From a virus (Duplodnaviria; Caudoviricetes): a DNA stretch of 64,000 nt. Location of the stretch: positions 1 through 64,000 of IMG/VR virus record IMGVR_UViG_3300029967_000162; one strand, 5' to 3'. The position numbers and the translations under genes are program-made. This document shows positions 2,293 through 64,000 of the stretch, piece after piece; positions within the stretch are counted from its first letter, which is position 1; the number at the start of each line of letters is the position of its first letter. Below the pieces are notes generated by a model. It was not told the origin of the DNA. It saw nothing but the letters and a program-made list of their open reading frames with translations, and searched no databases.

Positions 2293-3018
2293 ATGATGTC
2301 TGTCATGAAGCATATAGATGAAAAAGTTCTTGGAAGGGCTGAAGGTAATGAATTGTACACCAAGATAGATGATGCAATTATCAAAGAAGAAGCCATTGCC
2401 AAGAACATCGTGCAAGTGAACAAAGAGTCTTGCTGCGTCAAGAGTGACTACACCCATGATCATCCAGCACAGATTTGGCTATATGGCAAAGATGAGAAGC
2501 ACAACCCTACACACCTTGTCAATGAGCCAAAGTATTGGAGGCTTGAAGGTGATGACATGTATCTAGACACCAAAGACCCAGGAGACTTGTTGAACATCCA
2601 AGTGTCTGGATATTATTATGGTCCAGTGAAAGTCGGGAACATAGCTGGTTCATACAAGATCAACTTTGTTGACCATAGCTTCACGCCTGGGAGGAGAGAC
2701 TTCATAGTGAGGTTGAAAGATGTGTTGAGGTGGCTTCCACAGCATGCAGAGCAGCTCACTGTCAGCTTTGGGAATCTCAAGTACTACCAAGTTGGGTTGC
2801 AATCTAAAGATGTCTTGGAGCTGTTCAAGAGCATCTCAGAGCGCTGCACAACTGTCACATTCTTTGGGCTTGGGCCAACCATCAAGAGGTCAGCTGTGCT
2901 GAGGAAGAAGATGGAAGCAATCTACAACAGCATGGAGAATCCAAGCAACATCCCATTTGAATGGTGAATAGACAGAGGAGACAAGTCCATGCTGATCGAT
3001 GCAAAAATGCTAGCATAA
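2293..3018 (+). CDS. Hypothetical protein, paralogue of 3023-3742
   Basis: TGA 2965 read as Trp extends the ORF to TAA 3018, 4 nt before the next start; shares EK.L..Y.KID and P.HA...T motifs with its neighbour. Confidence 0.7.
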
Positions 3019-3022
3019 AAAG

Positions 3023-3742
3023 ATGACACTGAATGAGAAGATACTTTCAAGCAATCCAACACAAAGTGCTTATGGCAAGATAGACAATGAGATAAAGAGA
3101 GATGAAGTGAGGAAGGAGCTTGATGCATGCAATTGGCAAGGCATGTTGAAATTCATGGGGGTCAAGCAAGCAATCATATTCCCACCATATGAGTCTAATC
3201 CAAACCCAGAGAAGAACAGCATCATCATACAAGACAATGCAAGAATAACATCTCTGGAAGGATATTTAAAGATAACTATATTCATACCAGAGTTCATCAG
3301 AGACTACCACATAAGAGTGGGGGAAGTTGATGAGTATGAGTTGGCTTGCAGAGAGAAGTGGTATTCAAATGAGATAGTGTGTGGGTGTCCAGGCAAGCGA
3401 TTGCATGGAGATGAGCTGCTTGTAGAGATGTTCCCAGAGCATGCAAAGATGTTCACCCTCAGGATTCCTGGTGCAGCGGTGGTCTTTGATGAGAGGCAGC
3501 TCTTGCAGGTCTTCAAAGAAGCTGTCAAGTGCTCAGACATGACTAGGTTCAGTGACATGGCAGAGCATCTTGAGAGATTGTGGAGAGCATGGCCGGAGAT
3601 GAAAGAATGCTTTGAAGCTGTCTGGAATGACAATAGAGCCAATATCAAAGGCAAATTCATGATAGACTTCTTTAGATACAGCTCACCAATGATAGACTGG
3701 AAGCCATATCTTGAGAAGTATGGCATTGACAAGCTTCAGTAG
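3023..3742 (+). CDS. Hypothetical protein
   Basis: 239-aa ORF beginning MTLNEK. Confidence 0.7.
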   Translation: MTLNEKILSSNPTQSAYGKIDNEIKRDEVRKELDACNWQGMLKFMGVKQAIIFPPYESNPNPEKNSIIIQDNARITSLEGYLKITIFIPEFIRDYHIRVGEVDEYELACREKWYSNEIVCGCPGKRLHGDELLVEMFPEHAKMFTLRIPGAAVVFDERQLLQVFKEAVKCSDMTRFSDMAEHLERLWRAWPEMKECFEAVWNDNRANIKGKFMIDFFRYSSPMIDWKPYLEKYGIDKLQ

Positions 3743-4591
3743 CTAAGATCTTGTAGATGCAGTCCAAGTCTGCGCTGTACCAGATATCATACTCCGCATT
3801 TCATACCATAGATTGTGTGTAGCAACCCTATTTTGTGTTTGTACACCTCCAGTAGCAACTACATAGATAGCACCATATGTCTGTTGGCTATCTGATGGGC
3901 TGCTTTCGGTTGCGAAGTTAGACCAAGTGAGTCCAGAGACAGACACCCCACTCTTCAATTCAGCTCCAGTACACCTACTCATGGTATAGTACTGTCCAGA
4001 TGAATTATAAAGTGCTTCTCCAGCTTTGGTGCAAAGACATACAATATATGATGTTGATGATGTTGCTCCAGCCCATACTATCTTCAATGCTCCTTGGCTT
4101 GAAGAGCCAGAAGTAGCTTTTATCTCTATTGTGTAGGTGCCCCCTACTGTCACATAGCCCGCCCCAGAAGTGTCTCCACTATAAGTGTATCCTTTCTTCA
4201 AGCTCGAGTCTGTTATCTTCCAGCCACATGGGTAGCTTGAAGTCTTAGAAGTCATTATGACCGACTTCTGTGTGTTTGTCAAGTCTAGTGTTCCAGACAC
4301 TGCTCTTTGGAGCTGCACTGTCAGCTTGTCCCATCCAGATGCACTGAGCTTGACATATCCAACTCATCCTCTAGTTATATCTACTAAGCACACAAGTTGG
4401 TTGTCTTCATATGAGGTCTTTGTTGCTGTACACAATGCATTGACTTCAAATGCTGCATTGCTAGCCCCATTCTTCTCTAGATCAACTGTCTGGTCATATC
4501 TAAGGCAATATGTGTTATCATATGTGTAGTTAGTGTTACTGTTAATGTATGTGGAGATGTCATCTCATTTTGCTATCACATAAGAAGCCAT
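3743..4591 (-). CDS. Ser/Thr/Gly-rich virion protein, putative tail fibre/receptor-binding variant (MASYVIAKW type)
   Basis: ATG 4591 with in-frame TGAs at 4565 and 4364; 282 aa; N-terminal IAKW..I...C..Y...SY.DNQLV.LVDI motif resembles Bacteroidota-phage tail-protein N-termini. Confidence 0.6.
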
Positions 4592-4608
4592 AGGATGTGC
4601 CTTGTCAT

Positions 4609-4647
4609 TTAAGTTTCACCTACTTGCCCAGATTTTTCTATGCAGAA
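4609..4647 (-). repeat. 39-bp conserved site, copy 3
   Basis: Identical to copy 1; ends 17 nt upstream of ATG 4591. Confidence 0.95.
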
Positions 4648-4719
4648 TAATCAGGAACCAAGTAGATTGTTAGCATTCAAACACTTGTAGAGACATTTCA
4701 ATCTCTTAAAATGTTTTGT

Positions 4720-4759: not shown

Positions 4760-5575
4760 ATGAAAACGTCAGAGTTTGAAAAGGTATTCACACAGTGCTA
4801 TCCATCAATGCACAAGCTGCTCAATGAAATCAGAGTGGTCACTGGGAACCTCTCAACAGCTAACTTGAAGAGAGCATCTGTGCAGATGAAAGTCTTCAAG
4901 CACTTGCAATCTGCATATGTTGGAAACACAGCAAATGCTTACATCTCATGGACAAAGAGAGTCTTGAAGAAGATGAAAGTTGAGTGCATAGACTTCAAGC
5001 TGCACAAGTGTGACACGATGAACATATCTCTAGATGTTGATGAGCTGAAGAGGATAGAGAAGCTCAAATTGAAGAGCATGAAGATGGAATATGTGAGAGA
5101 CTTGTTCTTGCTCTCATGCTACACTGGGGCTAGGTTCTCTGATGTTGTGAGCTTCAGTGGGAGCAACATATGTGATGGAATGCTTGTCTGGCAACAACAC
5201 AAGACAAAGCGTAGGTGTGTTGTGCCAGCTACACAAAAAGTGAAGAGGCTTGTGTCACAAGTGAGCATGATGAGATGCAAAGCATTGCCAAACAACATAG
5301 TGAATGTGTGGCTCAAGGCAATATGCCAACTTGCAAAGGTTGACAATGAAGTGACTGTGATCAAGAATGGCAAAGTGATGAAAGTGAAGAAACATGAAGC
5401 AGTGTCATTCCACACAGCTCGAAGGACATTCTGCACAGTCTTGTATGAGAATGGAGTAGATTTGCTTGATGTGTCTAAGCTCGCTGGTCATTCATCTATA
5501 GAGATGACAAAGCGATATATCACATCATCAATCAAGCAAGTGTCTAAAGAAAAGTTGTTGAAGTACTTGATGTGA
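4760..5575 (+). CDS. Tyrosine recombinase (integrase/invertase family)
   Basis: TGARFSD (R), KT, SFHTARRTF (H-x-x-R), LAGHSS (H), TKRY (Y); terminal TGA probably a real stop. Confidence 0.92.
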   Translation: MKTSEFEKVFTQCYPSMHKLLNEIRVVTGNLSTANLKRASVQMKVFKHLQSAYVGNTANAYISWTKRVLKKMKVECIDFKLHKCDTMNISLDVDELKRIEKLKLKSMKMEYVRDLFLLSCYTGARFSDVVSFSGSNICDGMLVWQQHKTKRRCVVPATQKVKRLVSQVSMMRCKALPNNIVNVWLKAICQLAKVDNEVTVIKNGKVMKVKKHEAVSFHTARRTFCTVLYENGVDLLDVSKLAGHSSIEMTKRYITSSIKQVSKEKLLKYLM

Positions 5576-5580
5576 GCCCT

Positions 5581-6483
5581 CTATCCTTCCACCAAATATC
5601 TGTTTCGCTTTGCAATCTTCTCAATGACAACTTCATTCATGGCAAGCCCAAACTCATAAGTTCTCATCACTTTCTCTTCTGCTTTGTCAATCAAGAGAAG
5701 TGACTTTTTCTTGAAGAACCTCTTGAATCCTTCTATTGTTTGACATTTAGGTTCAAGCTTCATGAAACATGATATAGCTTTGAGCACATCATCATTAGAG
5801 GTGTTGTCGAAGTTGTTTGTTAGCCAAAGCTTGAAGTCTTTGTAAATCATGAGAATCTCCGGCTTCTCTCCTTTTCTTCCAATGATTCTATGCTTTCTTC
5901 CATCTATTGCGGCTTCGACAGAGAATGCATTCTTCTCTGTTGGGTCTCAAAGCATGTATATGATGTCTAGCATATATGCAAGATTGTTGCTCATAGGAAG
6001 CTTTCTTAGCTCTATCAACTCTTCATAGTCAATGTTGCCATCTTTCTTGAGCACATTGTCTATCTTTTCTTGCTTTTCATTCTTGTTCTGGAATCTTTCA
6101 TATATCTCATAGATATGGTTGATCTCATGACATATTGCTCTTTCAATTCCAATAGGATCTATAGATCTTGATATAATCAGATTGATAGAGACTTCACAAA
6201 GTTGATTGTTTTCTTCATCATACTGTACACAATTCTCACCTAAATACTCTACATATGAATTTGTGTATTCAACTGAAATAGTGATGTCTTTGAAGTCATC
6301 TCTCAACAATGGATACATCTCTTGTGGAATTTGCATTTGATTTCCAATGCCAACTTTTGGAAATGCATTGATGACATAGTTTCTTATTGCAATGACATCT
6401 GGCCAATATCTATAAGCAGCTAACCCACTTTTTTCACATATTAGATATGGTATCTTCTTCATTCTGTCAATTCTAAATATCAT
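5581..6483 (-). CDS. HExxH metallopeptidase-like family, paralogue 1
   Basis: AAYRYWPDV, CHEINH, YML*DPTEKNAF with TGA 5947 read as Trp. Confidence 0.75.
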
Positions 6484-6502
6484 AATATATTGTACAATTT
6501 CA

Positions 6503-7429
6503 TTATTGCAAAACATATTTGTGGCCTTCTGCTAAGTACCTATTTCGCATTGCTATCTTTTTCATTATGCTTTCATTCATAGAGAGCCCAAACTCATAAG
6601 TTCTCATCACTTGCTCTTTAGCTTTGCTGATCAAGAACAACGACTTTTTCTTGAAGAAATTCTTGAAGCTATCTATTGAATCATATTTTTGGTTGAGTTT
6701 CTTGAAGCAATCTTTAGCTTTAGATATGTCGTTGTTTGAGACTTTGTCAAAGTCATTCAACAAGAACTTTTCAAAATCTGCATAGATCTTGAATATCTCT
6801 GGTTTTTCACCTTTGCCTCTTCCATCTCTATAAAGTCTTCCGTCTAACACAGCTTCAGAAGAGAATGCATTCTTCTCAGTTGGGTCTCAAAGCATGTATA
6901 TGATGTCTAACATATATGCAAGATAGTTTGATATTGGTAGTTGTCTCAATTCCATGAGTTTGTCATAGTCGACATTTCCATCTTTTGCTAACAACCTTTC
7001 TATTGTTTTCTTTTCATTCTCTCTATCTTTAGGTCTTTCATATATCTCATACAGATGATTGATTTCATGGCAAATTGCTTTTTCAATCTCCACTAACTTG
7101 AGGTCTTTTGAAATATCTAAATTGATAAATGGATCACATAACCCTCTTTCTTTACTATATCCTACACCATTAGATCCACTGCATTCATTATGCAAGTTAG
7201 TGTATCTTACATTGATTTCAATTCCATTGAAATCTTCGCTCAACAATGGATACACTTCACAAGGAATGGTGAAGTCTTCATATAGCTTTACTTGTGGAAA
7301 GTGATTTATGATATAATTTCTTATTGCTATGACATCTGGTCAATATTTGTAAGCTGCTAGGCCGCTTTTCTCATATACTAGATATGTTTTTCTTTCTATT
7401 CTAATTCTTGGGCCGTTCCAAAGTAACAT
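6503..7429 (-). CDS. HExxH metallopeptidase-like family, paralogue 2
   Basis: ATG 7429; TGAs at 7340 (AAYKY*PDV) and 6887 (YML*DP) align with Trp in paralogues. Confidence 0.75.
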
Positions 7430-7452
7430 TATTCTTGTGTCTTTATTTTTGA

Positions 7453-9342: not shown

Positions 9343-11991
9343 ATGCAAAACTTGAATGTGCCAGCAATGCTGAGATATGATGTGTCTAAGCCTGCATTGC
9401 CTGGAAAGATTCTCTCAATCAATGAGTCTGCCAACACATGCAACATGTCTTTCAAGCTCAGAGATGGGAGAACCAAGACATACAGAGACATACCAATGCC
9501 TTCAGTTGTGGTAGATGAAGGCTTCTTGGACACAGTGAAGCAAGCTGGCCAGAAGGTAGGCCGTGCTATATCTAAGGCAGTGAATTGAGTTGTCGCAAAG
9601 GTGAAAGGATGGCTTGTGCTTCAAGCTGAGGACGGCAATGTCATCCCTACATGCAATGCTCCTATCAACCTTGCGATCCAGCAAGCACAAGGCAAGACCA
9701 ACACTCACTCTATGCTCTTCATGCCTTCTGCAAGCCTCATCTCTCAAGCTTCTCAGCAAGGTGCAAAGATAGACAAAGTCACTTATGACGACCCGTCTGA
9801 CCGTGCAGCAGTCAACAAGTTCTGGAAGCGCGTCATCAAGGAGTATGGCACATCCAACAAGACTCTTGAAGAGTCTGTGAAGCATGTCAATGAGAGCTAC
9901 TATCGTGACTCTAGAGCTTTCAAGAGCTTGAATGAGTCTGCGATCGCTTCTCTTGACGCTCCTAAAGACATGGCAATCCACAATGTCAACTCTGCTGAGC
10001 TCATGGACCTCATCTACAACTCTATTGAGCAGCAGTGCGCAAATGCTCCTGGCAAGGCAGACATACACCCAGCAGTGCCAATGATTTGGGGTGCACCAGG
10101 CATTGGCAAGTCAGCAATCATCAAGCAGACTGCAAAGTTCATGCAGAAGATGAATGGATCATCTTTCAGCATGCAAGTAGTGAACTGCCCAACCATACAG
10201 CCAGAAGACTTCACACTCCCAGCTGAAGTCGAGACAGCAGTTGGATCTAAGGCAGTCGTCGACATACCTAAGAAGTGGCTTCCAGTCTATGATCCTAATG
10301 TAGAGAACGTTGAGGAAGTCGATGCATTCTACAATGGCAACTTGAGCATGAGCGGCAAGTATGACGGCGGCATACTCTTCATGGATGAGTACTCTCGCAT
10401 GAACTATCGCTCTTCAAACATCTTCCTCCAGCTGACTGAAGGCCGCATGTACAACTCTTATGTGATGGCATCTAGGTGAGCGATGATCGCAGCTGCCAAC
10501 AGGAAAGTCGACATGGATGCAACGAAGCGCCAAGACTACTCTTGGGACAATGCCACAGCTACAAGGTTCCAGTCTGTCAACTTCGTGCCTACTCTCCAAG
10601 AGTGGCTTGATTGGGCAACCTCTCCTGCCAAGGAAGGCTCCTCTGAGCCTAACGTAGAGCCAATCATCACAGACTTCATCAAGGAGATCGGTGAGTCAGT
10701 GTGGTACAAGTGCATCGCATTTGGCGGCTACACCCCGCAAGGCATTGAAGCTTCTCGTGCTAACATGGATGCTGCTGAAGCAGAAATTGAAGAGCTTGTC
10801 GATGATGAGCGACTCCAGTCTGAGACCACTGGCTACAACTCTCGTGAGTGGACACTCCTCTCTGACGACTACCGTGCTCGCAAGAAGAACTTGCTTGTAG
10901 ACCCGACTCGCTTTGCAGAAGGCTCTGAGAACTACAAGCGTGAAGCTGCTATCGCTGTAGACCCTGAGAAGAGAGATGCGGCTCGCAAAGCAAGGTGGCA
11001 GTTCTTCTACAACCAGAACAAGCAAGCGCTTGACCCAGGCAAGAAGTATGCAGGCGAGGATGTCTGGAAGGACACTGGCAAAGTGATGGAGTTCCTCGAC
11101 AAGTGGTTTGAGATGAAAGGCTTGCCTAAGTACACTGGTGAAGATCAGCTCCCATCTCAGAAGATCAAGGAGTACAACCAGTTCCTGAAGCTCTTCGATG
11201 CTGATGAGTGTGCACACATCTGGGAGACTGGCACGATGACCGTGCCTGAGGACATGAACAAGTACTCTTCTTCTAAGGAGATTGATGACAACCCAAGCCT
11301 CAAGTGGAAGAAGTCGTTCCAGACACAAGAGAAGGTGCTCCAGCAGCTGTTTAGCAGGTATCCTGGTGGCAACGATGCAATGAAGGCAGACTTCATGGCT
11401 GCAGTCGAGAAGACCCTCAAGTCTTGGGATGAGCCTCTTGCAGATGTCGTGGCTAGCAAGGCAGACATAGACAAGGTCAGTGATGAGTTCTTCACAATCA
11501 ACTACAACAAAGTCAGCAGAGGAAGCTCAAAGGAAGAGACAATCAACTTCTTTGTTGACAAAGATGGCGACTCTATAGAGAGCCAGTGAGGAGACATTGA
11601 GTCTGCTGCAAAGGCCGGCATTGACAAAGACAGTGCAGACTACTCTACAGTCTTCATGCTCTCGAATGGCTGCAACCTGCTTGCAGGTGGAGACAGCTTC
11701 ATGACTCGTGTGATGAACATCATCAAGTTCTTCAGCCGTGCTGCTGTGACCACTGGGTCTAACAAGGCAATCGGTGCATTCACAGCTTACATCTGTGGTG
11801 ATGCAAGCCAGAAAGCTGATGCAGAGACTGGTGAAGCTGCTTTTGACATCGAAGGCTTCAAGAGCTCTGTCCTTGGGAGCATCGTCTATGGTAGTGATGA
11901 GGTCAAGAGAGACCAGAAGAGAGTTGCAAGCTTCATTGCTGAGTTCCTTGCATTTGCAATCGCTGGTGTGAAGCATGCTCTCAATGAGTAA
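9343..11991 (+). CDS. Large AAA+ ATPase (MoxR/AAA_5-like)
   Basis: Four track ORFs join in frame via TGA 9586, 10477 and 11587 (882 aa); Walker A GAPGIGKS, Walker B ILFMDE, sensor AAAN, Arg finger TRF. Confidence 0.8.
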
Positions 11992-14560: not shown

Positions 14561-15670
14561 CTATGCTACAAGTCCTTTTTCTTCATGTGTCTTCTCGACA
14601 TGCATCTTAGACAGCTTGTCAAGAGCAATGCTCTTCGTGATTCGCAATGTCTTCACATCAGTGCCTGGCAGCTCAAACATGTAGTCATGGAAGAGCACCT
14701 CAAAGATAGATCTCAAGCTGCGAGCACCGGTCTCCATCTCATGTGCACACTCGGCTATCTCATTAATCGCAGCACCATCTACCTTGAGTGTGATGCCATC
14801 AAATGCAAACATCTTCTTGTATTGTGAGAGGATGCCATCTTTTGCATCTCTGATGATAGAGGCATACTGCTCAGCAGAGAGTGGCTTGACATTTGTGAGC
14901 ACCGGCCACCGCCCGATGAACTCTGGGATCATCCCATACTCTTTCAAGTCAGCTTGAGTGAGTGAAGAGATGAGTGAGATGTCATCTTCCTTCTTTTGAG
15001 ATAGAGATGTGTGGTTGAAGCCAATGTGCGGCTCTTGGTGGAGCCTCTTTGAGATGATCTTCTCTATGCCTGAGAATGCTCCAAGCCCAATGAAGAGTAT
15101 GTCTTTTGTGTCGACATAAGTGAGTGGCTCATCTGGGTGCTTTCGGTTGCCTTTTGGCACACCAATGTAAGCACCTTCTAGCATAGGGAGCAGAGCTTGC
15201 TGCACACCTTCGCCAACTACGTCTCTTGTGATGTTCATGCCAGCCTGCCGTTTTGCAAGCTTGTCGACTTCATCAATGAACACAATGCCATATTGAGCAA
15301 GGGCCACGTTCCAGTCGCACTTCTCAAGGAGCCCTTTGAGGAGTGTCTCAACATCATCACCAACATATCCAGCTTGTGTGAGCGAAGTTGCGGCTTGGAT
15401 GTAGTAAGGGATACCCATGTAAGATGCCATGACTGTAGCAAGGTATGTCTTGCCACATCCTGTAGGCCCTGCGATGATTATGTTGCTCTTAGATATCTTG
15501 TCTTCTGGTGAAGCCAAGAATATACGCTTGTAGTGGTTGTAGATGCCGACTGCAAGCGTCTTGATTGCTTCATCCTGCCCTATCACATACTGAGCTGTGT
15601 AGTCATACAGCTCCCGTGGTGTGTAGAGCTTTATTGTCTTCTCACTTCCTCTTATCTGGAACTCTTTCAT
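14561..15670 (-). CDS. clpX: ClpX-like ATP-dependent protease ATPase subunit (no N-terminal Zn domain)
   Basis: [46 protein letters not shown] loop, IGF loop, TGARSLRSI. Confidence 0.92.
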
Positions 15671-24992: not shown

Positions 24993-27317
24993 TTAAAAAT
25001 AGATTCGCTTCTTCTGTTCTTTCTGTCTTCCATCAGACCATGACTTAATCTTTGTGAGGTATCCAATTGGACGATCATATAAGTCTATCCTTTCAGATCC
25101 ACAAACTGGGCACTTAGTTATTGGAACTTTTGTAATATATTGACAATCGCAACACTCAGAATTTGGTATATTAAAAGTAATATAACTTGTTCCATTCTCA
25201 GCAGCAAAAGTCAGAAGCTTCTCATATTGTGGCTCTGTGAGATGCTCACTTAAGTTGAGGTGCGCTGCTGACCCACCATCAAGATAGTCACCAATGTAGT
25301 CTCTTCCATGCAAGACGATGTTGTCAAGGATAGACTTTGAGTCATAAGGCTTGAATACATAGCTAGTGTAGAGATTGATGTCTTTAGGCACTACATATCC
25401 ATCTGCTTTGTCCCAATTGTAGTTCTTCAACCCTAGACTTTCTCCTGGAACTAGCTCTGTGTTAAATTTTGTCTTGTCTGAAAGATGCTTCTCATTTTGT
25501 TCTTTTACGCAAGAGAATATCCTCTGACAGAACTTGCTATATGTTTCATTTGGCGACACATCAATCTTCAAGTAGTCTGCAGCGGCAGTGAGGCCATTCA
25601 AGCCAATTGTCAAATATTGCTTGTTGAGGTCTATGAATCCCGCCTTGTAAGCTGGCAACAAGTCCGCACTGTACATGTCCCAAAGGAGCTCATTGTAAGC
25701 AGTCTGATACTTGTATACTCGTTCAAGTATCTTTGTAAGATATGTTTCAAAAGACATTGTGCCTACACTTGCATCATCAACAGTTGTATTGAACACTTCA
25801 AGAGACTTCTTAGTTGAGTTGCAAGACCTGACATAGTTCTGTATGATCCTGTTGAGGTTCAATGAGATGACACTCTTGCTTCCAGTAAGAAGCCCCATAT
25901 TTCCTAGGGTATAGTTGAATTCTTTGGTTTGAATCTTGCTTTTAAGACGGCAACAGCTCGATAGGCTATCAGCTGTGTCGCTGATGTACAAGAAGAATGA
26001 GTTGCCTTCTGCATACTCTTGGCAGATGAACTTGAATGTGTCTTCATCCTGGAACTTTCCATCTATGTAGAGCACCGCATAGCTTACGACTGGGAATGTC
26101 AAGATGCACTTAAGACGCTCTTGGTTGAACCAGTGAAGGAAGTGCTGCTGGAGCCAGTTGAGTGAGCTTCAAGTCGGAGCTGTTCCATCTGGGAACCTGA
26201 ACTCACCAAACATCGCCTCAAAATAGCCTTTGTCAAAGAGTGAGAAGTTTGTGAATGCAGACTGTGAGCCACGAGAAGCTGCTGGCTGGTTGATGCTGTA
26301 GATGACTTGCTGAAGAGACTGGTTGATCTTGCCAAGTGTGGTGCGAGAGTTGTCAGAGAGCTTCTCATCTGGATTCTCTACATCAAGCAGGTTATTTGCA
26401 AGCTCTACTGCTTCTCTCATCTTTGTGGAAGTGCAGATGTACGGCTTTGGGGTCTCAGCTATTGCTCTGAGCTCCGCCAAGCTCTGCACTCCTAAGCCAG
26501 TGATCTCTCTAAGCTTCCTGAGCTTAGAGCCACAAGTGACAAAGTCTCCAAGCCTAGATGTGTAGTCTTCTCCAAACTCTCTTCTTGTGAAGTAGTCAAA
26601 GTACATCAAGAACTCTGATGTTGCAACAGCACCAGCAAACTGAGCACTTATTGCAAAGATGAGGTTGATGTAGATTCCACAGAAAGAATCAAGGTTCTTT
26701 GGAGTCGCTGACAATCCTCCAAGCTTCTTGATTCCATCTATCAAGAATGGATACATTGAGATAGAGCTACAGTATGGAGCGATTGCTCCAGCAAATGAAG
26801 ACTCGTCATGCTTGTAGATTATATGGTTGTTGAGGTCTTCTTCATACTGCTTAGGCTCAAAGTCTGGATATAGCTGTGAGAGCTTGTCCATGATCATGCG
26901 ACGAGAGATCTGGATGTTGTCTTCTTTGTGGATTTCACTGTTAAGGCAGGAAATATTCTTTGAAGTCACATTAGCATTGTCATCAATCGTAGAGTTTGCG
27001 TTGTTGCTTGACTGCTTGTACTTGTTTATGAATTCAATCTTCTTCTTTGTCCAGTCTCTGAGCTGTGTGTGCTTCTCTCTGTAGATGATGAAGTGCTTTG
27101 CCGTCTCAACGTAGCCAGCTCGCATCAAGAATGCCTCAACTTTGTCCTGTATGTAATCTATTGGATAGTTCTCTTCACTCTTGAACTCAACAACAAACTC
27201 TTTGACTTGCTGTTGGTCTAGCACCTCATCAGTCTCTGCATTAGCTCGCTTTATAGCATTTGTGATCTTTGCAGCACTGAATTGCTGTATCTTGCCGTTT
27301 CGTTTTATTACACCCAT
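24993..27317 (-). CDS. nrdD: Anaerobic (class III) ribonucleoside-triphosphate reductase
   Basis: ATP-cone, YKHDE, APYC, LSSCCRL, LTIGLNG, Zn-binding C-x-x-C pairs, RPIGY glycyl radical; joined by TGA 26169 (774 aa). Confidence 0.95.
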
Positions 27318-32639: not shown

Positions 32640-33722
32640 ATGGAAATCATAAACGAGAAGAAGTCTGTAGCGGCAACTTTGTTCTGGTCAGATATACAGA
32701 GAATCATAGACTACATGCAGGCACATGGAAAGAACAAGCCTGTTGGAACAATCATTAAAGTCCCTGAAGAGATTTGTTTTACTCTGCTTGGGAAGTATTT
32801 TGAAAATCTCAAGATAAGCTTAGAGATATCTAAAGAGATTGTATACAATGGAGAAACCTCTCCATTAGATGGCACCCAATATAATTGGGTTTCATATGAG
32901 GAAGAAAGAACAAAAGAGCCTGACAAAGCATTAGAGTTTCCAGATAAGCTCAAAGACATATCAATTAAGATAAAAGCTTTCAGAGACCTGAGCCATGATG
33001 GTCTTGAGCTAGTCTTAGTGCATGAAATCAACCATCTGTGAGAGACATACAACAGAGCAAATGTTGAGATGCAGAAGCCAGAAGATGAAGTCGATGAGAC
33101 TTCTATGCTTGTCATGAATGGTCCAATAGACTTGAAGCTACTATTAAATGCACAGCAACTTCCTTGGATTTCAAAGAGATGCAAAGACATGCTAGGCTTG
33201 ATGTATCAGATATGGTCGCCGACAGAAAGGAATGCATATGTTGCAGAGTCTATCTCTATCCTAAGAAGAGAGATACCTTGGCATGAATATGAAAAGAAGA
33301 CTATATCCGATGAAGAGCTACTGAAGATGTTCACTACAACTAGCGTATACAGTTTCATACAAAAATCAAAGACCTTCATAGATGAAGACATTGAGAAACT
33401 CACAGAAAGAGAGCTAGAAGTCATCTTGTCTGTTTGTGTGTGCTTCAAGAATCCAAAGTCATTGCTTAAGTCTCCGGAGAAATTAAAAAAGATTCTAAAG
33501 ACAAAGAGCTTAGACTATCTTGACAAATATCAAAAGAAGATGTTGCATGTTATGAAGCTATGCAGAGAGATGACAGAGAATTTCATGGTCAGGCACTTAA
33601 AAACAAAGGGGTTGCTTGGATTGACACTTGCAACAGAAAGGCACTTCTTGTTTGAGAAGATTGATGAAGAGATAGAGAAAGAAAAGATAAAGATAGAAGA
33701 CAAGAAGGCATGGAGACTATAA
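32640..33722 (+). CDS. HExxH family paralogue 6 (tandem duplicate of paralogue 5)
   Basis: VHEINHL*ET with TGA 33039; YQIWSPTERNAY. Confidence 0.78.
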
Positions 33723-34903
33723 GTGAAAAGATAAACTGAACATCTCCAGAAGTCACAAGATTAGTTGAAGAGATTAGAGAAGTCTGCTTCAAGGATGATG
33801 TGCACACTGATTGCTCAAAGAACCGAATCAAGCATTTTAAAGTGCATCATCTAAATCTCTATGAGCAAATCAAAAAACAGTTTCCTGAAGTCACAAAGCC
33901 GGCTGAGGTAGTTTGATGGTGAGAGTTCTATGTGAAAGGCTTGCACAAGTGCAGTGCATGTGGAAAGATGCTTGAATACGGCAGAGGGGACCATCACTAC
34001 ACCTGATGTGATGAGTTCAAGTTCACACCATTCTGCTCTATAGAGTGCTCAAGGTCTGAGAAAGGCAATGCTTGTAGGATGGAGAAGACAAACAAGGCTT
34101 TCAAAGAGAAGTATGGCTGCACATTTGGTGGCCAGTATGCTGGAAATGAAGAGTTGAGGAGAAAGCAGAGAGAAAGCTTGAAGAGTCACTTTGGTGAGGA
34201 TGTTGAGAACCCAAGCCAGGCACAAGCAGTGAAAGACAAGAAAGTCAAGACATGCACAGAGCACTATGGTGGATATGGGTATGGAAGTGAAGAGCTGAGG
34301 AGGAGAGCTGAAGCAACATATAAGCAGAAGACTGGGTATAAGAATGCACAGCAAAATCCAGTGGTGAAAGCAAAGACTAAGCAAACAAACATTGAGAGAT
34401 ATGGCACAATCCTTCCAGCAAATGCAAAGCAATGGGACAACTATAGAAAAGAGTGGCTTTGGAAGTCTTGAGATACAAAGAGAGCAAACGGCACATTTGC
34501 ATCATCTAAGATCCAAGATGAAGTTGAGGAGTACTTAAAAGAAAAGTTTGGGAAAGTTGAGCATGAGTGGAATAAAGACAAGAGATATCCATGGCATTGT
34601 GACTTCTATGTTCCGAGCTTAGATCTATTCATAGAAGTGCAAGGGATGTGGACACATGGAAAGCATCCATTTGATATCACTAACAAAGAAGACTTAGCTT
34701 TACTTGAAATGTTGCAGGAGAAATCAAAGACTTCGAAGTTCTATCAAAATGCTGTTGATGTTTGATCTATTCGAGATGTAGAGAAAAGAAAGAAAGCAAT
34801 AGAAGAGAATCTCAACTTCTTTGAGTATTTTGGAAATGATTTTGAAGATTTCAAGTTACTCTTTGAAGACTATCTAAAAAACAAGAAGATGGAAGTGAAA
34901 TAA
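33710..34903 (+). CDS. Putative free-standing homing endonuclease (Zn finger, E[RK]YG repeats, Vsr/PD-(D/E)XK-like C-terminus)
   Basis: CSACG..FCSIEC; EKYG/EHYG/ERYG repeats; RYPWHCDFY...IEVQGMWTHG; six in-frame TGAs. Confidence 0.75.
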
Positions 34904-34936: not shown

Positions 34937-35542
34937 TTAAAGGGACACCTCATCTCAAAAATCCGCGCGGTATGTCATCTGAGCCGTCCAAAGATTGTCA
35001 TTGCCATAGTCAAAATCACCAAACCCAATGTTAGTAGTTGGGAATATGTTGTAGAATATCCACTGCATGAATGGGTTGCCTACCCTGTCATGGCGGGTCA
35101 CTGTCATGCTTGGTGCTACATAGTCCTTCTTGAGGCCCATCCTGCCAGTGAGTGGATCATAGATCAAGTCATTCCATGCACGCAAGAAGTTGTATGTGTA
35201 GTTGGATGGTGTGTCAGAAGTGTACCGAAGGTTGAGCTGCCAATTGATTTGGAGATCAACAGTAGTAGATGGCTGCGCACCTGCAAAGCTACGAACTGCA
35301 AACTTGTATTTCTGCTCTTTCACACTTCCAGAGCTCTTTGCGGTGTCAATGCCACTTACACTCTGTGCACCTTCAAGGATGACAAGCACTTCTTCATCAG
35401 AGGAAGACAGCCCAAGGCCAGTTGGAGGGTCCAGCTGGATCGTGAACATGTTTCCATATATAGGCTCATACAAGGATGTAGAGACACGTGAGCTACGGTA
35501 GTTGCTGAGTCCCAACAGTCCTTTTGACTTTTGTTCTGCCAT
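34937..35542 (-). CDS. Tail tube protein (T4 gp19-like)
   Basis: FLRAWNDLIYDPLTG..GLKKDY; YNIFPT; C-terminal ADF*DE with TGA 34955. Confidence 0.85.
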
Positions 35543-37237: not shown

Positions 37238-37810
37238 CTACAGCACCCCTAATGAGTGGAGGGTCTTCTCTGTGATGATGACAAACTCACAACCCCTCTC
37301 ATTCACATACTTCTTGGCGGCGTTCCACTTTGCGACATTCACTAAGTAAGTGTTTGCCTCATTGATGTATCTTCGGTGGTCTTTGAGCTTTGCACCTTGC
37401 TGGAGCGGCTTTGGGGCTTGTGTCTGAGCATAAGGCTTCACTTCACCGAACACTTTCTTCACTGTGCCATCTTGCTGCTTCACTTCCCACCAGAAGTCTA
37501 GGTAATATGTAGCTGGTGCAAAGTTGTGTGGGTCATTTGGATCTAAGCCTTGAGCCCTGCACTTAGTGAGGTTCTTGACTGGGTTGAGGTATGGTATGCC
37601 TATAGGCTCTGATGCTCACCGCACTATAGATGGAGACCGGTCAAGCCAAGACATGAAGGCATACTCTCATGATGACCGATACTCATTCACTCTAGAGATG
37701 CACTTCTCTGGATGGAGGGAAGGGATGAAGTACCCTTGCTTGTATCGAGTCTTGGACTCATCTAGTATTGGTGCATTCCTCTTCTTGTATGCAGCTAGGC
37801 TGCTTGCCAT
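37238..37810 (-). CDS. Head completion nuclease (T4 gp4 / TnsA-like)
   Basis: YKQG.F.P.HPEK, YRSS*E, R*ASEPI.IPY, YYLDF, EVKP, NVAKWNAA; TGAs at 37667 and 37616 fall at family-conserved Trp. Confidence 0.88.
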
Positions 37811-40782: not shown

Positions 40783-41817
40783 ATGAGCAACAACCCAATG
40801 GACATCTTCAATGTTGTCCCGACAATCCAAGATGCACAGGTGAACAAAGTCTCTGATGAGTTCCATCCTAGTCCGAAGAACTCTAAGAATGGAGTCTATG
40901 AAGCTGTGGTTAGGTTCCTCCCGAACCCAGATGATCCAGCAAACAAGTCTGTGCTCAGGAAGAATGTAGCATTCTTGACGAATCCAATCACAAATGAGAG
41001 CAAGCTTGTAGACTGCCCTTCGACTGTGGGCAAGCCTGACCCGATAGTGAACACCTTCTTCACATTGAGGAAGTCTAACTCCGCTGTCAAGCAGGAGCAA
41101 AGCAAGATGTTCAGCCGTAGGCAGAGGTATGCAAGCTTGGTCCAGGTGCTGAAGTGCACGACAAATCCAGACCTTGAGAACAGAATCCTCATCTGGAACT
41201 ACGGCATCAAGATCTATCAGAAGCTCCAGAATGAGATGGCACCCGCAATCGGTGATCCTCGCAACCCGTTCGATGTGCTGAATGGCCGTGCATTCCTTGT
41301 TAAAGTGAAGGAAGTAGGCGGGTTCAGCAACTATGATGACTGCCAGTTTGTCGATGTCGACAAGAGTGTGAGTGCATTCAGGATTGAGACTTCTAAGGGA
41401 TTCATCCCTGTGACCCAGGAGCTCATTGCATCAGAGAAGGGCAGGAATGCAATCGTCACATATCTCAAGGAGCACATGCCTGACACGACACCTTATGAGT
41501 ACCATGAATGGGATGAGCAGACTGAGCAGTTTGTGTCTCAGGTCATCAAGATGTACATAGATCCAAACTATGTGCCTAGCTCTGCAACTTCTGCTCCAGC
41601 ACAAGGACCTGCAGCGACTCCGACTATTGGCAGCTTGACACCTAGTGCTGACATAGTGTCAAGCGCTCCTAAGCAGCAGAGCTCTGGCTCTCTTGACCTT
41701 GACAGCCTTGGGATTGGCAATGTCGCAGAAGTAGTCAACCAGAGCAATGTAGCTCCTGCACCTCAGCCGAGCACTGAGATGCCGGATCTGTCTGACATCC
41801 TCTCGAACATCCTCTAA
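40783..41817 (+). CDS. Single-stranded DNA-binding protein (T4 gp32-like)
   Basis: AVVRFLP, DCPSTVG, WNYGIKI, NPFD..GR.F.VKVK.VGGFSNYD, low-complexity tail. Confidence 0.9.
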   Translation: MSNNPMDIFNVVPTIQDAQVNKVSDEFHPSPKNSKNGVYEAVVRFLPNPDDPANKSVLRKNVAFLTNPITNESKLVDCPSTVGKPDPIVNTFFTLRKSNSAVKQEQSKMFSRRQRYASLVQVLKCTTNPDLENRILIWNYGIKIYQKLQNEMAPAIGDPRNPFDVLNGRAFLVKVKEVGGFSNYDDCQFVDVDKSVSAFRIETSKGFIPVTQELIASEKGRNAIVTYLKEHMPDTTPYEYHEWDEQTEQFVSQVIKMYIDPNYVPSSATSAPAQGPAATPTIGSLTPSADIVSSAPKQQSSGSLDLDSLGIGNVAEVVNQSNVAPAPQPSTEMPDLSDILSNIL

Positions 41818-41910
41818 GCCTGTTCTTGTTTTTCATACTTACATAACATGCAAGCCTTGTGTCTAGATGATGCAAGACTTGCATCTTTCTTTTGCATACA
41901 ATCTTGTGAG

Positions 41911-43020
41911 ATGGAAGCAACAAATGACATGTTCAATGTGAGCATCAATGCTCTGCAAGACACCAATGTCTCAATAGAAGACACAAAGGAAGAGCTTGCA
42001 GACAGAGTGAGCATGATACTCAAGAGAGAGTTCCCGCACAACATGCAGAAGCAGAGAGTGAAAGTGACTCGAGAGAGCCTCAACTTTGCATGCCCATACT
42101 GTGGAGACTCTGCAATAGATGACTCTCGCAAGCGTGGGTACCTCACATTCGCTGGCAAGTGGGCAGGACACTACAAGTGCTACAACTGTGGCAAGCACAC
42201 ATCAGTGCTTAGGTTCTTCAAAGACTTCAATGAAGAGCCAAGCTTGGCAGCTGTGGCATTGCTTGCAGATGTGTCTTCAAACTCTGCACAGAGGATGCAA
42301 AGCAGTACAAGAGCATTCAATGGATTTGACAGAGAAGAAATCAAGAAGTATGGAGTTGAAAAGATCAAGCTTGCGGCATTGCTGAGGGCATTTCCAATAG
42401 ATGATCCTATCAGTGCGCCATGCAAGGCATATCTCATTAAGAGGAGGCAGCTTGACCTCTCAAAGTTCATGTACATCCCATCACTCAAGTGGCTTGTCAT
42501 CTTGAACTTTGCAGATGACATTGTCATTGGTATGCAGCTCAGAGACTTGACCGGCCAACGACAAGCGCGATACAATACTTTCAATCTGTCAAGAATCCAC
42601 TCAAGCATATTGAGAAATCATGTTGAGGTCCCAACTAAGCTTGATGAGTCATCTCTCATCTACAACTTGTACAGCATTGACTGGAACAAGCCAGTCATCG
42701 TGACTGAAGGGCCGCTCGACTCATTCTTAGTGCCAAATGGCATTGCGACAGCTGGAGCAAACAAGCATGTGAGCTTGCCAATGAAGCTCTGGTGGCTCTT
42801 TGACAATGATGAGACTGGAAGGAAGCATGCAATCGAGAAGCTCAACAACAATGAGCAGGTGTTCATGTGGGACAAGCTCATGAGAGACTTAGGTCTGCCA
42901 CAGCGCAAGAAGTGGGATGTGAATGATGTTGTGATGTGGATGCACCTGAATGGAATCAACAAGAAGGTAGACTGGCTGAGCTACTTCAGTGATGACCCAT
43001 TCGACATGCTCTCTATCTAA
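41911..43020 (+). CDS. DNA primase (T4 gp61-like)
   Basis: NFACPYCGDS..YKCYNCG Zn domain; TOPRIM VTEGPLDS, FDNDETG, DVND. Confidence 0.9.
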   Translation: MEATNDMFNVSINALQDTNVSIEDTKEELADRVSMILKREFPHNMQKQRVKVTRESLNFACPYCGDSAIDDSRKRGYLTFAGKWAGHYKCYNCGKHTSVLRFFKDFNEEPSLAAVALLADVSSNSAQRMQSSTRAFNGFDREEIKKYGVEKIKLAALLRAFPIDDPISAPCKAYLIKRRQLDLSKFMYIPSLKWLVILNFADDIVIGMQLRDLTGQRQARYNTFNLSRIHSSILRNHVEVPTKLDESSLIYNLYSIDWNKPVIVTEGPLDSFLVPNGIATAGANKHVSLPMKLWWLFDNDETGRKHAIEKLNNNEQVFMWDKLMRDLGLPQRKKWDVNDVVMWMHLNGINKKVDWLSYFSDDPFDMLSI

Positions 43021-50265: not shown

Positions 50266-53200
50266 TTAAGATTCTGAAGAACTTATGGTCCCTAACTTTT
50301 GCAAAGTGAATGACATCACAATCTTCTCCATGCCTTTGCTCATCTCAAGATCGATATCAACAAGTCCAAAGGAATTTTGGATGACCTCGCTTGTATTGTT
50401 GCTTTCATCGCATACAATCGAGTAGGCTTGGATTGCACCACTGTTACGTGCTGCTTGGAGGATAGGAGTCAGCTTCGTCACAATTGCTGCCCTTGTCGCT
50501 GCAGTGTTATAAAGAAAGTTGAACTGCTTTAGCACTGCCTCACACTCAATCTCAAGAGTGTTGAGGTTCTCACGGACATGCAGCTTGTTGAAGTCTGACT
50601 TCAATGTCTGATAGCAAGTCTGGTTGCCATAGATCATGATCTGCCCATTCCTCTTGATGAGAGTGTTGACACCCATCGGCTCAAGGTAGTCACGGTCCTC
50701 TTGGTCAGCAAGATACTCGATGTCATTGATCTTCGAGTTGGTCAAGATGCCATTGAGGTTTGCTACGATCATCCATGGGTCACCACCTTGGTACTTGTGC
50801 ATGAGAGTGTTGGACACATCAGCTGCAGGTGGCACGCTGAGAGTCTTCGACCCAACCTTGTAAGTGAGGTATGGCCAGAAGGCAGCGGCAAACTTGGCGC
50901 CATCATCTTCAGAAGGCAAGCTGAAGCTCTTAGTTGCATAGAGCTCACGGTTGCCACCTTCAGGGATGTACTTCGTGTTGAATGCTGGCTTCACTTCCAT
51001 TCCTTGCACATAGCTGTCGCAGAAGTATGGGTTCTCACTGCAAGCAAACTCCTTCATAGATGGGAGGTTGAGGAGAGCCGTGCACTTGCCACGTTGCTTA
51101 GCCACACGAGCAAGGTGTGTCTTGCCGCCGAGGCCAGAGTCAAGGCCATAGCCCATAGAGTCGACGATGTACCTGAAGTCAACCATCTCATTGTTGCACA
51201 AGCCACGCAGGATGCCTTCATCCTCAAGCACCGCATAGATCTTCTCGATGCCACCTTCAATGTCGATGTTGCCATCAGCATCATAGCCTGGCTTGTGGCG
51301 AGAAGTGATCTTCAATCCCTTGAGAGGAATCCAACGGAGAGAGGTAGACACAGCGTCATCAGTGATTGGGAGCTGGCGAACTACACTATCTTCGAGAGTG
51401 TTCACGAAGATGCTTGAAGTTGCCTCAGTGCTGCCGACACCACCAATCGATGCGTAGTCGACGCCTGCCGTAGGCCATGTAGTGATCTCAGCAGAAGAAG
51501 AGTCATAGTCGACGCCATACTCATCTTCCCATGTGCTGATCTCCTTGATGTAGCCGTCTTCAACCTCATCCTCATACATGTTGTTGCCATCCTCATCCCA
51601 GATTGCTGGATAGAACTTGATGAAGGTGCCAGTGCTATTTCCGGATGCATCTTTCTGCTCAACCTCAACAAAGTCACGCTCAGTTGCATGCTGCTCAATG
51701 AGCACTGGATCGACAGTGGTGAAGAGGTAGAATCCCTGGGTGCCAAAGTCAGTGTTGACAATCATCTTAGACTGAGTGTAGTCATAGACAGTCGACTTGT
51801 AAGTGAACTGACTAGAAGCATTCACATTGACGAAGATCTTGTCAATCACACGGGTGATGCCTGGGATTGTCTTGTACTTCTGAGCAACACCAACCTCATT
51901 GTTGAAGGCGATGTTGTTGACATAGTCGCCGATCTTGATAGAAGAAGCTGCATCATCATCCATCACGATGAAAGTGGTGTAGTTGTCTTCCTCAACAGGG
52001 GTCTTGCCATCAGAAGTCTTGCCTGCATCATGGAAGTATGCTACAGAAGGCACATAGCTGACGAGCTCGCTTGTCCCAACGCCTGCCTCAGCGGTGTAGT
52101 TGTAAGAGAGGAAGTCAATTCCATATGTCTGGTCTACAGAGCCATACTCAGCAATGACGAGGTTGCCAAGAGAAGCATCTGCCTCAGCTGTGATGGTGTA
52201 GGTGACAGGATTCTTGGAAGTTGGGTAAGTCACCTCATAGCTCTCGACCTCATCCTCATCATTGACGTTGACGTCGACGTTGATGTCAGAAGAAGTCTGC
52301 TCAAAGACATCATAGTAGGTGGTAGTCCCACGCACTGTCTTAGCCTTCTCATAGAGCTTGTAGATGTCAGAGTCGACGACTTCGCCATTCGAGTCAAAGT
52401 CAAGCACGAGGTAGTTGCCATAGTAGGCACCACCAAACGATGCAGACTGAGCGTCATCAGAAGGAGATGTGTAAGTGATCTTCTTGGCAAGGCTGCCATC
52501 GCTGATCGTGAGGATGACCTTGTCATTGCCAGTCACCTGGCTGACAGTGAAAGTGTCATAGAGAGAAGGATCAACCTCGAGCTCTGCTTCTTCAGTGTCA
52601 AGCTGAGTGTAACGGATGATGCTGCCACTCACCTCAACATATCTGTAAGACTCATCAGAAGTGTCTTCTGCATTCACATAGACAGAGATGTCAGAAGTGA
52701 TCTGGCACGTGAGCACATCTTCCTCAGGATCATAAGAGAGCATGTAGCCGTACTTCTCGCCATTGAGGGTGAACTCATCTTCTACAGTGTAAGCTGCGGT
52801 GCCAGTGAGGTCATCATAGCTCTTGAGGTAGTAGTTGGAGCTGTTAGCAAACCTGACCGAGAGGTAGGATGAGTCGATGTCATTGCTGTAGTAAGTAGAG
52901 GCATTCGGCTCAGAGCCACCCCCAGTGAAGCCCTTCTGGAAGTTGTGGCCGACCATGTCGATGAGGTATGCTGTAGAAGAAGCCTCACCCTGAGAAGTCG
53001 TCATCTGGGAGTCACCGTCGATGTCATAGAACCAGCATCCCTTGCCACTCTCAGAGCCTTCATCTGCTGCACCATTGTAGTCATATGCAAGCACCTCTGC
53101 TGCATCTTCATTGAATGTAGCAAGGAGGCCGGTCTTCTCAGTCACAGCATTGATCTTAGCGACCAAGTTTTGCATGTTGCCTTGCTTGTCTTGGAAGTCT

Positions 53201-54120
53201 GGGATGATAGAGCCGGTTCAAGTGCCAAGGAGCGTTATGCCTTCAGCTCCGACAAATGAAGAGACTTTGTCTTTGAGGATGCCCTTGTTGTCGAAGTAGG
53301 AAGCCCAGATTGGGTCTGTAGCAAGGTGCGGATAGTTAGACCAGTTGCCCTTCACACAAATGACAGTCAGGAAGTACTCGGACATGTAGTCTGATGGACG
53401 GATCCAGCCATAAGGGATGTTCTCTGCACCGTTATATCATTCGGCTGCAGTGATGTCGTAGCCAGTCAGCCCTTCAGTCTTGTAGACCAAGATAGAGATC
53501 TCCTCAGTGCCGGTGTTGCCGAAGTTGAGGAAGTTAGAGTGCTCAAAAGAGCCAGAGTCGCCAGTAGAGAGCTTGTTGGCAGCGACTGCCATCAAGTTGT
53601 GGCTTGATGGAATCCAGAACCTAGACCTGTCAAACAGAGAAGAGTAAGGGGTCTTGCCAATGTATGGCACCATGTCACCTTCCTCTGTGCCATAGACCGT
53701 AGCATCTACAGATCCATAGAGGTAGTCATACTCACCATAAGCAGTGCCAGCTGAAGACACCTTTGGATTAGGTGTGCCGGCATCAAGTGAGAGCGCCGCA
53801 AAGTTGACTTGGTCAGGGCCTGACTCAGAGTCATCTACTGCAAGAAGGTTGAGTGCCAAGATCGGAGAGTTAGAGAGCATCGTCTGGGCAAAACGGTTGA
53901 AGAAGCAACCTTTGTGCTCAAGCTTTGTGTTGATCTCACCAAAGATCTGCTGGCGCTCAAGGTCAGAGTCAAGGTACACCGGCCTGTTGAATATACCCTT
54001 GTTAGCAAAGCCGACAAGCAGACGATAAGAGTCTGTAGTTGTGCTTATTGCTTCTTGGGTATTATCAAACTCCAGGGTGTAGACACCCGCACTCTTGAAT
54101 GAATCAAAGTTGATTACCAT
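50266..54120 (-). CDS. Contractile tail sheath protein (T4 gp18-like), 1284 aa
   Basis: SAGVYTLEFD, LVGF..KG.FNRP, VPPAADV, GVNTL, YGNQT, LHVRE, FLYN, VCDESNNT; TGAs at 53437 and 53218. Confidence 0.92.
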
Positions 54121-54225
54121 GAATTTGATAATAAATTTTGCAAAATATGTCTTACAACTTTTGCATTGCAGAATTCCAAGTCCTATTAAAGACTTAGATG
54201 CATATTTCACAAATATTTATTAGAT

Positions 54226-62333: not shown

Positions 62334-62481
62334 GCTATATTTCTAGAATATAAATTTGCCAAAATTCGCCTTTAAATATTATATTGCTTCTATATAAACC
62401 AATATAATATTATTCTTAAAATTACTTATTTTTTAATACTTTCAATTTCAAAATAAATAATTTAAAGAACATTATATTTAT

Positions 62482-63102
62482 ATGAAAGCTAAGGAGGTGA
62501 TGAAAGTCTTAGGCATTTCAAGACAAACTCTTTTCAACTATCTCAAGCAAGGCAAGATTACACTCAATGCAAAGTTGAACAAGAACTTCTATGACTATAA
62601 TGAAGACTCAGTTTATGCATTGATTTGCAACAAGAAGAACAAGCATAATAGACAGGTTGTATCATATGCAAGAGTTTCTTCTCAAAACCAAAAAGAACAG
62701 CTCAAGACACAAAACCAAAGAATTTATGAGTCATGCATATCTAGAGGACTTAATCTTGACTTGCAACTAGATGACATCAAGTCAGGCATGTCTGCTGATC
62801 GCAAAGGATTTCAAAAGCTTCTTAATATGGTACTACAAAATGAAGTAGAGGTAGTTGTCATTGAAAATAAAGATCGGCTCATCAGATTTGGATATGAAAT
62901 CATTGAATATGTCTTTAAATGTTTTGGAACTAAAATCTTAGTACTCAATGATGTACTAGAGAATAAGTCTTATGAGCAAGAATTGACTGAAGACTTGATA
63001 AGTATAATTCACTACTTCACTATGAAAAACTACTCACATAGAAGAAAGTTGAATAGATTGAGGAAAGAGCTTGAAGAAAGTGAAAAGTATCAAGATAAAT
63101 AA
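62482..63102 (+). mobile_element. tnpA: IS607-family serine transposase
   Basis: MerR-like HTH, YARVSS..QK, DIKSGM, KDRLIRFG, EL.EDLISII. Confidence 0.93.
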
Positions 63103-63126
63103 ACTGTAACAAATCTATATTGCTTG

Positions 63127-64000
63127 ATGAAGACAATTAAGCTTGACATAAAGAAGTCTTGTACTTTAGACATCCAAGACTTGACAAGTACCTACAACTC
63201 AATTGTCAGGTTCAGCTTCAATCGTTTTCAAGAAGGATATAGATTTCCAGAAGTTAGGAACTTAGCCAACCAAACTTTTAAAGAGAAGAATGACTTGAAC
63301 TGTTGGATCATTCAGTGTGCGATCAAAGAAGGGTTCGAGCTAGTCAAGAAGGTTGGCAATAAGCACATCTTGTTTGGCGGAAAAGCTTTGTGAAAGAAGT
63401 ACTTAAAGAAGGAGATCACAAAGAAAGAGTTCAAATATGCTAGGATGAGGCCGGTCTGTATTGTTGGTGAAGCTCAATATCACGGCAACAGATTGATAGA
63501 CTTTGACTTAGTGAATGACAAGCTGACTTTGAAGCTTTCAAGGAAAGATCATCAGCTGATTGAGCTTGAGCAGCCACACAAAAAAGTCCAAGCAGAGCTC
63601 AACAGAGTCCAAGAGCTTGCAGAGAACAAGCTCATGCCAGTCACAGTCATGCTCACAAGCGAGTATGTCTGGTTGACTTATGATGAAAGTCTTCTCAAGA
63701 TCCACCAGCTCTGCAACTTGAAGGCTAACAGAGTACTAGGCATTGACTTGAATCCAAATGCACTAGGCATCTCTATTCTTGAGTTTGAGGAGCAAGACAA
63801 CTTCAAAGTCTTGCACAAAGAAGTAATAGACACATTCAAGCTCAACCAAGACAAAGTCTCAACAAACAAGAGGAAGTTTGAGTTGATCCAAATCTGCTAT
63901 CATGTCAAGAACCTAGTTGACTGTTGGAAGTGCGGCAAAGTTGCCATAGAAGAGCTCAATATCAAGCCAGGTGACAAAGGCAAAGGTCGGTGGTTCAACA
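63127..64000 (+). mobile_element. tnpB: IS607 TnpB nuclease (runs off the window end)
   Basis: FGGKAL*KK (TGA 63391), GIDLNPN, IEEL, DKGKGR. Confidence 0.88.

Follow-up and report, generated by a model that had tools for sequence, protein, structure and literature searches.

Stop-codon reassignment is a known feature of two groups of gut phages that bear on the present case. The Prevotella Lak megaphages have genomes of about 540 kb or more, and all Lak lineages are reported to use genetic code 15 and to be without integrases (PMC8346664). Gut phages that read TGA as tryptophan (Trp) in hosts with the standard code have likewise been described, Agate and Jade being examples (Borges et al., bioRxiv 10.1101/2021.08.26.457843), and TGA-rich homing endonucleases as well as missing suppressor tRNAs were known before (10.1101/2021.08.26.457843; PMC11210395). 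Here, in-frame TGA codons were analyzed in IMG/VR virus record IMGVR_UViG_3300029967_000162, a linear contig of 134,147 bp with a GC content of 43%, whose first 64 kb are referred to as the window. It is very probable that this contig represents a fragment of a jumbo phage in which TGA is reassigned to Trp genome-wide, that the host is a standard-code member of the Bacteroidota, and that decoding of TGA is supplied or induced by the phage.

Genes were predicted with our own gene caller, the codon usage of which was trained on the long open reading frames (ORFs) of the contig, and the outcomes under different genetic codes were compared. Under code 11, the standard bacterial code, 169 genes were called with a mean length of 217 aa and a coding density of 82.3%, whereas reading through TGA gave 129 genes with a mean length of 302 aa and a coding density of 87.2%; reading through TAG or TAA with the same caller brought no comparable gain. 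Contig-wide, 105 in-frame TGAs were found in 59 genes, including 55 inside the window, spread over 32 window genes, and at 77 of the 105 sites (40 of them in 25 window genes) both flanks scored better in frame than off frame. The frames are interrupted by TGA alone, never by TAA, TAG or frameshifts, and the conserved genes for NrdD, TerL, sheath, gp4-like protein and the ATPase become complete only when TGA is read. The open run beyond a TGA 'stop' has a median length of 121 codons, compared with 14.5 for TAA and 17.5 for TAG (Mann-Whitney p = 6e-10), and the 129 genes all terminate at TAA (70) or TAG (59). Since TGA shows no build-up towards gene ends relative to TGG, with 13 of the 105 TGAs and 70 of the 559 TGGs lying in the last 30 codons, it bears no statistical sign of still serving as a stop. 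An excess of TGA was seen in the first 30 codons (17 TGA vs 35 TGG), and about ten of these N-terminal TGAs are probably start miscalls. An earlier interpretation of the window made without database searches (hereafter the sequence-only reading) had claimed more than 35 gene-splitting TGAs between positions 2965 and 63393, with TGG still common. Both ends of this range are indeed in-frame TGAs, the number is exceeded even among sites with coding signal on both sides, all ten of the peptide motifs quoted are present in the kind of place described, with TGA at the residue marked, and TGG outnumbers TGA among Trp codons by 559 to 105. Every gene call on the contig hinges on the code, as illustrated by the 882-aa ATPase, which public code-11 calls break into fragments that start and end at its TGAs.

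The residue inserted at TGA was examined through alignment with homologs, paralogues and close relatives. Among ten sites tested in conserved genes, Trp (W) is dominant at eight, the exceptions being TerL codon 540, where F or Y is found, and ATPase codon 82, which lies in a variable column. Codons 48 and 65 of the gp4-like head completion protein fall in columns that hold W in 14/19 and 17/19 homologs, respectively; T4 gp17 has W at TerL codon 276, as do Lak phages and other relatives, which also have W at codon 365; in the sheath, W stands opposite both TGAs (codons 258 and 331) in Prevotella phage Lak-A1 and in other relatives, a standard-code one among them; and of the 54 ATPase homologs obtained when 1.8 billion cluster representatives were scanned, 51 carry W at codon 379. 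For the anaerobic ribonucleotide reductase NrdD, a PHROG match and an alignment to PDB 4coi are present on both sides of TGA codon 383. Within the contig, the residues that paralogues place opposite TGA are W in 17 cases, another TGA in 8 and G in 1. The most direct evidence is the swapping of TGA and TGG among close relatives. In the relative L052, the ATPase of which is 93% identical, TGG occupies all three ATPase TGA sites and TGA occupies one TGG site, while the ATPase of relative L053 (64% identical) contains seven TGAs, of which two are common to both and four stand opposite TGG. Together, these alignments indicate that TGA is read as Trp and not as glycine (Gly), as the sequence-only reading had proposed.

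Codon context provides an additional line of evidence. In this genome NNG codons are favoured unless the next base is G, in which case NNA prevails; for lysine, the share of AAA before A, C, G and T is 0.09, 0.09, 0.69 and 0.13, respectively, and the same rule is found in Glu, Gln, Leu, Val and Arg codons. The share of TGA among Trp codons before the same four bases is 0.10, 0.05, 0.26 and 0.15 (Fisher, G vs non-G, p = 3e-6), and TGA acts as the A-ending synonym of TGG because this order matches that of the other NNA/NNG pairs. In three of the four contexts, its frequency is close to that of other A-ending codons. The dominance of TGG is predicted by the genome's own codon bias and is no mark of marginal recoding; GC content at third codon positions (GC3) explains TGA use weakly (Spearman -0.18, p = 0.065). 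More generally, codons end in G or C unless this final base is followed by G or preceded by C, in which case it is A or T; T-ending forms make up about 0.1 of NNY codons ahead of A or T and about 0.9 ahead of G. CpG is very strongly depleted contig-wide (rho 0.28, with TG and CA both at 1.44), a trait common to the TGA-recoded relatives L052 and L053 (0.36 and 0.25, respectively) and not seen in Lak-type relatives (0.63-0.89). Cytosine methylation followed by deamination, or avoidance of a motif, are possibilities for its origin.

The completeness of the contig was estimated at 24% by CheckV, which would correspond to a full genome of roughly 550 kb. T4-like functions encoded in the window include the gp4-like head completion protein, a gp32-like single-stranded DNA-binding protein (SSB), a primase and an exonuclease, together with NrdD, a ClpX-like ATPase, tail sheath, tail tube and baseplate wedge; UvsX, TerL and a prohead protease are encoded on the contig outside the window. 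PolB, the T4 portal and gp23 had no family match on the contig, which fits with its being a genome fragment. A megablast search with 24 kb against GenBank phages returned zero matches, and an Rfam scan of the 64-kb window found nothing. At the protein level, the best GenBank phage matches are to Prevotella Lak megaphages, with identities of 43% for TerL, 56% for the sheath and 39% for the primase. Searches of IMG/VR and the JGI metagenome collection with TerL and the ATPase alignment found no relative closer than Lak, and nearer relatives were recovered as short Logan contigs only, in runs ERR2144930 and ERR2144958. Accession numbers adjacent to these runs are given in a paper for gut samples of wild primates with the Prevotella copri lineage, which is no more than a hint of origin. 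The contig probably comes from a distant relative of Lak, not from a Lak phage in the strict sense.

A standard-code Bacteroidota is most likely the host, as had been suggested from the promoters in the window. A GGAG-type Shine-Dalgarno motif lies upstream of just 1% of genes, and the motif GT[GT]TTA[AT]ATTTGCA, which holds the Bacteroidota -7 box TAnnTTTG, precedes six genes. A fimbrillin gene (Mfa_like_1) at 83.9-84.9 kb of the contig has its closest protein clusters in Bacteroidota, and the kinship with Prevotella phages points in the same direction. The fimbrillin gene belongs to a fimbrillin-like cluster, two genes of which contain TGA. Two transposase-like genes (phrog_506), both downstream of a late-type motif, are also present, one TGA-free and the other with two in-frame TGAs; a search of genome contigs with the transposase as a lead to the host gave just a 27% match, to a Spirochaetaceae metagenome-assembled genome, and was uninformative.

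According to the proposed mechanism, TGA would have moved from stop to Trp genome-wide in a jumbo phage that has a distant kinship with the Lak megaphages, with TAA and TAG staying stops and TGA employed as an ordinary A-ending synonym of TGG. In a standard-code Bacteroidota host, the phage would then have to supply or induce TGA decoding, and the likeliest decoder would be a phage-encoded tRNA-Trp(UCA) in the three quarters or so of the genome that lie outside the contig, an assignment for which the balance of probability is slightly favourable. The contig carries six tRNAs, namely Thr(UGU), Met, Gln(UUG), Pro(UGG) with a 77-nt insert, Ala(UGC) and Leu(UAA). All five elongator tRNAs have U34 anticodons that read NNA codons, so that a UCA tRNA would suit the set. 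The proportion of code-4 phages with a detected suppressor tRNA was reported as 35% (10.1101/2021.08.26.457843) and 15% (PMC11210395). In the tRNA-Pro(UGG), the insert follows position 38 and can form an acceptor-like helix of 7-9 bp and a T-arm-like hairpin; it was considered as a hidden UGA reader and rejected as it has no anticodon arm. Intron-bearing tRNAs have been reported in recoded jumbo phages (PMC13037316). The putative Thr(UGU) tRNA is 85 nt long and has a long variable arm, giving it the class II shape known from Leu, Ser and Tyr tRNAs.

Several observations weigh against phage-directed reassignment in a standard-code host. No tRNA(UCA) was detected on the 134-kb contig by ARAGORN, Rfam RF00005 or a custom anticodon-loop scan, nor was any release-factor or tryptophanyl-tRNA synthetase (TrpRS) domain, and the tRNA-Trp(UCA), release factor 1 (RF1) and TrpRS that the phage had been expected to supply are thus absent from this quarter of the genome; the mechanism is one that we infer. 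As the contig represents about 24% of the genome, the missing decoder means little. The host was approached indirectly rather than identified directly. Of all the TGAs, the one at 5573-5575 in the tyrosine recombinase gene looks most like a working stop: it lies 18 residues past the catalytic-Tyr motif, where it would end a 271-aa protein, and reading on would add a 27-codon tail antisense to the conserved 3' end of the convergent gene 5581-6516. Finally, TGA is spread evenly between late-promoter and other genes, a distribution that would also suit a host reading TGA as Trp. Such a code-4 host would remove the mismatch and the need for a phage decoder, and would agree with the decoder being absent from the contig, with TGA roughly matching the share of other NNA codons in three of four contexts, with its spread over all gene classes, and with clear TGA stop use not having been found. 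It is nevertheless very unlikely, as the signals point to Bacteroidota and the nearest phages infect Prevotella, a GC content of 43% and a jumbo genome are ill-suited to Mollicutes, and a decoder absent from about a quarter of a genome says little. We know of no code-4 member of the Bacteroidota. A related explanation, in which TGA decoding is constitutive and independent of a conventional phage suppressor tRNA, is compatible with the even TGA spread over gene classes, the near-equilibrium use of TGA as an NNA codon and the missing decoder. It could involve an uncultured gut Bacteroidota host that reads TGA as Trp or an unconventional phage route, such as an altered host tRNA-Trp or release factor 2 (RF2) or an atypical tRNA-like RNA, and it is regarded as unlikely.

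The identity of the residue leaves less room for alternatives. Alternatives to Trp are a Gly reading, as in phages of Absconditabacteria and Gracilibacteria, selenocysteine, and decaying pseudogenes. Codes 4 and 25 yield identical ORFs, and G stands opposite the variable ATPase codon 82 in 5/51 alignments. However, W predominates in every conserved column, with hardly any G; TGA is swapped with TGG in close relatives; TAA, TAG and frameshifts never break the frames; and a single gene holds up to nine TGAs, with no sign of Cys columns. Because of the W columns, the TGA/TGG swaps in relatives and the paralogue alignments, all three are excluded for practical purposes and can be given hardly any probability. 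The preferred explanation remains reassignment of TGA to Trp by a phage of a standard-code Bacteroidota.

It has been suggested for other recoded phages that early genes are written in the standard code and that late virion or lysis genes need TGA decoding, which would delay late proteins (10.1101/2021.08.26.457843). A timed switch of this kind had also been raised for the window, on the grounds that primase, SSB and the ClpX-like ATPase are without TGA while sheath, tube, gp4-like protein and NrdD contain it, and this gene list was found to be correct. With the expected TGA counts of each gene class set by codon context, the eight genes of replication and nucleotide metabolism contain 1 TGA in 34 Trp codons where 5.7 would be expected (P = 0.013), and the integrase, with a host-type promoter 32 nt upstream, seemingly ends at a TGA. 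In contrast, virion and packaging genes are not enriched (47 Trp codons; 9 TGAs vs 7.9 expected), and the excess is found in homing-endonuclease-like genes of the DUF7487 family and HNH type (58 Trp codons; 26 TGAs vs 8.7 expected). About 20 genes, among them those for the tube and prohead protease and the one preceding terL, have the motif ATAAATA 19-50 nt upstream; it resembles the T4 late promoter TATAAATA, with 17 sense occurrences vs 1.4 expected. The units behind this motif have a TGA share of 17.2%, compared with 15.2% elsewhere, and the 70 TGA-free genes equal the 69.9 predicted by random scatter. Furthermore, nrdD contains a TGA, baseplate wedge and prohead protease contain zero, and gene 115939-117510 (523 aa), with a host-type promoter upstream, contains two. 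Replication genes thus avoid TGA and late genes are not enriched in it, so that a strict temporal switch is partly supported at best, and its operation here is doubtful. The absence of late-gene enrichment advises caution against assuming that recoding always works as a lysis timer. Overall, the sequence-only reading is supported for Trp, for TGG staying common, for a Bacteroidota host being likely and for the genes just listed; the decoder that it proposed is absent from the contig, and its timing component is weak.

The features discussed are collected in Table 1. The most TGA-rich gene set on the contig is the DUF7487 endonuclease-like family, which is multi-copy and has internal repeats. 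Four copies of a site of about 43 bp, alternating in orientation, flank the tyrosine recombinase gene and precede differing genes, an arrangement that resembles an invertible or shufflon-type switch.

Table 1. Positions of TGA-bearing, TGA-free and accompanying features on the contig, the first 64 kb of which form the window.
Feature	Position	Strand	Remarks
Sites of about 43 bp	9-50, 152-194, 4609-4651, 8483-8531		Window
First in-frame TGA of window	2965..2967	+	Codon 225 of gene 2293-3018; paralogue alignment covers site
Tyrosine recombinase	4760..5659	+	Pfam Phage_integrase, residues 91-257
Three tandem HExxH-motif paralogues	5581-6516, 6503-7567, 7656-8372	-	TGA where other copies carry TGG
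882-aa ATPase	9343..11991	+	TGA codons 82 (9586-9588), 379 (10477-10479), 749 (11587-11589)
ClpX-like ATPase	14561..15670	-	TGA-free
Anaerobic ribonucleotide reductase NrdD	24993..27317	-	Complete only with TGA 26169-26171 (codon 383) read
Further HExxH-family copies	27360-28397(-), 31575-32633(+), 32640-33722(+), 47760-48743(+)		
DUF7487 homing-endonuclease-like gene	33560..34903	+	9 TGAs; TGA-rich family
Other DUF7487 family copies	48887-49869, 54226-55334; 64706-65779		Two in window; last on contig outside window
Tail tube	34937..35542	-	TGA 34955-34957, five codons from gene end
ATAAATA motif, examples	35574-35580; 77005-77011		First in window (tube); second on contig outside window
gp4-like head completion protein	37238..37810	-	TGA codons 48 (37667-37669), 65 (37616-37618)
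gp32-like SSB and primase	40783..43020	+	TGA-free; 2 and 9 TGG
Tail sheath	50266..54210	-	TGA codons 258 (53437-53439), 331 (53218-53220)
Last in-frame TGA of window	63391..63393	+	Codon 89 of gene 63127-64410
Transposase-like genes (phrog_506)	72032-73345, 80390-81601		Contig outside window
Thr(UGU) tRNA	82349-82433		Contig outside window
Fimbrillin-like (Mfa_like_1) cluster	82862-86995		Contig outside window
tRNA-Pro(UGG)	87405-87556		Contig outside window

Phages with TGA as a sense codon differ in how they relate to the code of their hosts. The code-4 phages of Mycoplasma and Spiroplasma and the code-25 phages of Absconditabacteria likewise use TGA as sense in every gene class, but they follow the host code, whereas the present contig combines Bacteroidota-like host signals with Trp, not Gly, and a GC content of 43%. 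A closer likeness is found with Agate and Jade, in which, from the published descriptions, TGA also aligns with Trp, TAA and TAG serve as stops and TGA rarely or never does, the predicted host belongs to a standard-code gut phylum, and the suppressor tRNA often goes undetected. The only Agate-specific trait seen to be shared is that homing-endonuclease genes are the most TGA-rich. Unlike in Agate and Jade, the hallmark genes here are nearest to Lak and late genes show no TGA enrichment.

The resemblance to Lak extends to Bacteroidota hosts, to stop-codon recoding that reaches terL and sheath genes, and to the repeat-bearing DUF7487 endonuclease-like family, the Lak copies of which adjoin terL. 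The two nevertheless differ in several respects. Lak recodes TAG to Gln, whereas TAG ends 59 genes on the present contig and its read-through brings no gain; the 14-16 in-frame TAGs of Lak terL stand opposite ordinary residues here, and the TGAs here stand opposite Lak W. A tyrosine recombinase is present on this contig and an integrase is missing in Lak, and the GC content is 26-27% in Lak compared with 43% here (Devoto 2019, PMC6784885; Crisci 2021, PMC8346664). What is new is the placement of a code-4 lineage beside the code-15 Lak phages, the swapping of TGA and TGG among three relatives, and the evidence from codon context. A Lak-related lineage has taken the other route, TGA to Trp instead of TAG, in the same orthologous genes, and Lak and this lineage together form a natural pair for studying the causes and mechanisms of stop-codon change in jumbo phages of Bacteroidota.

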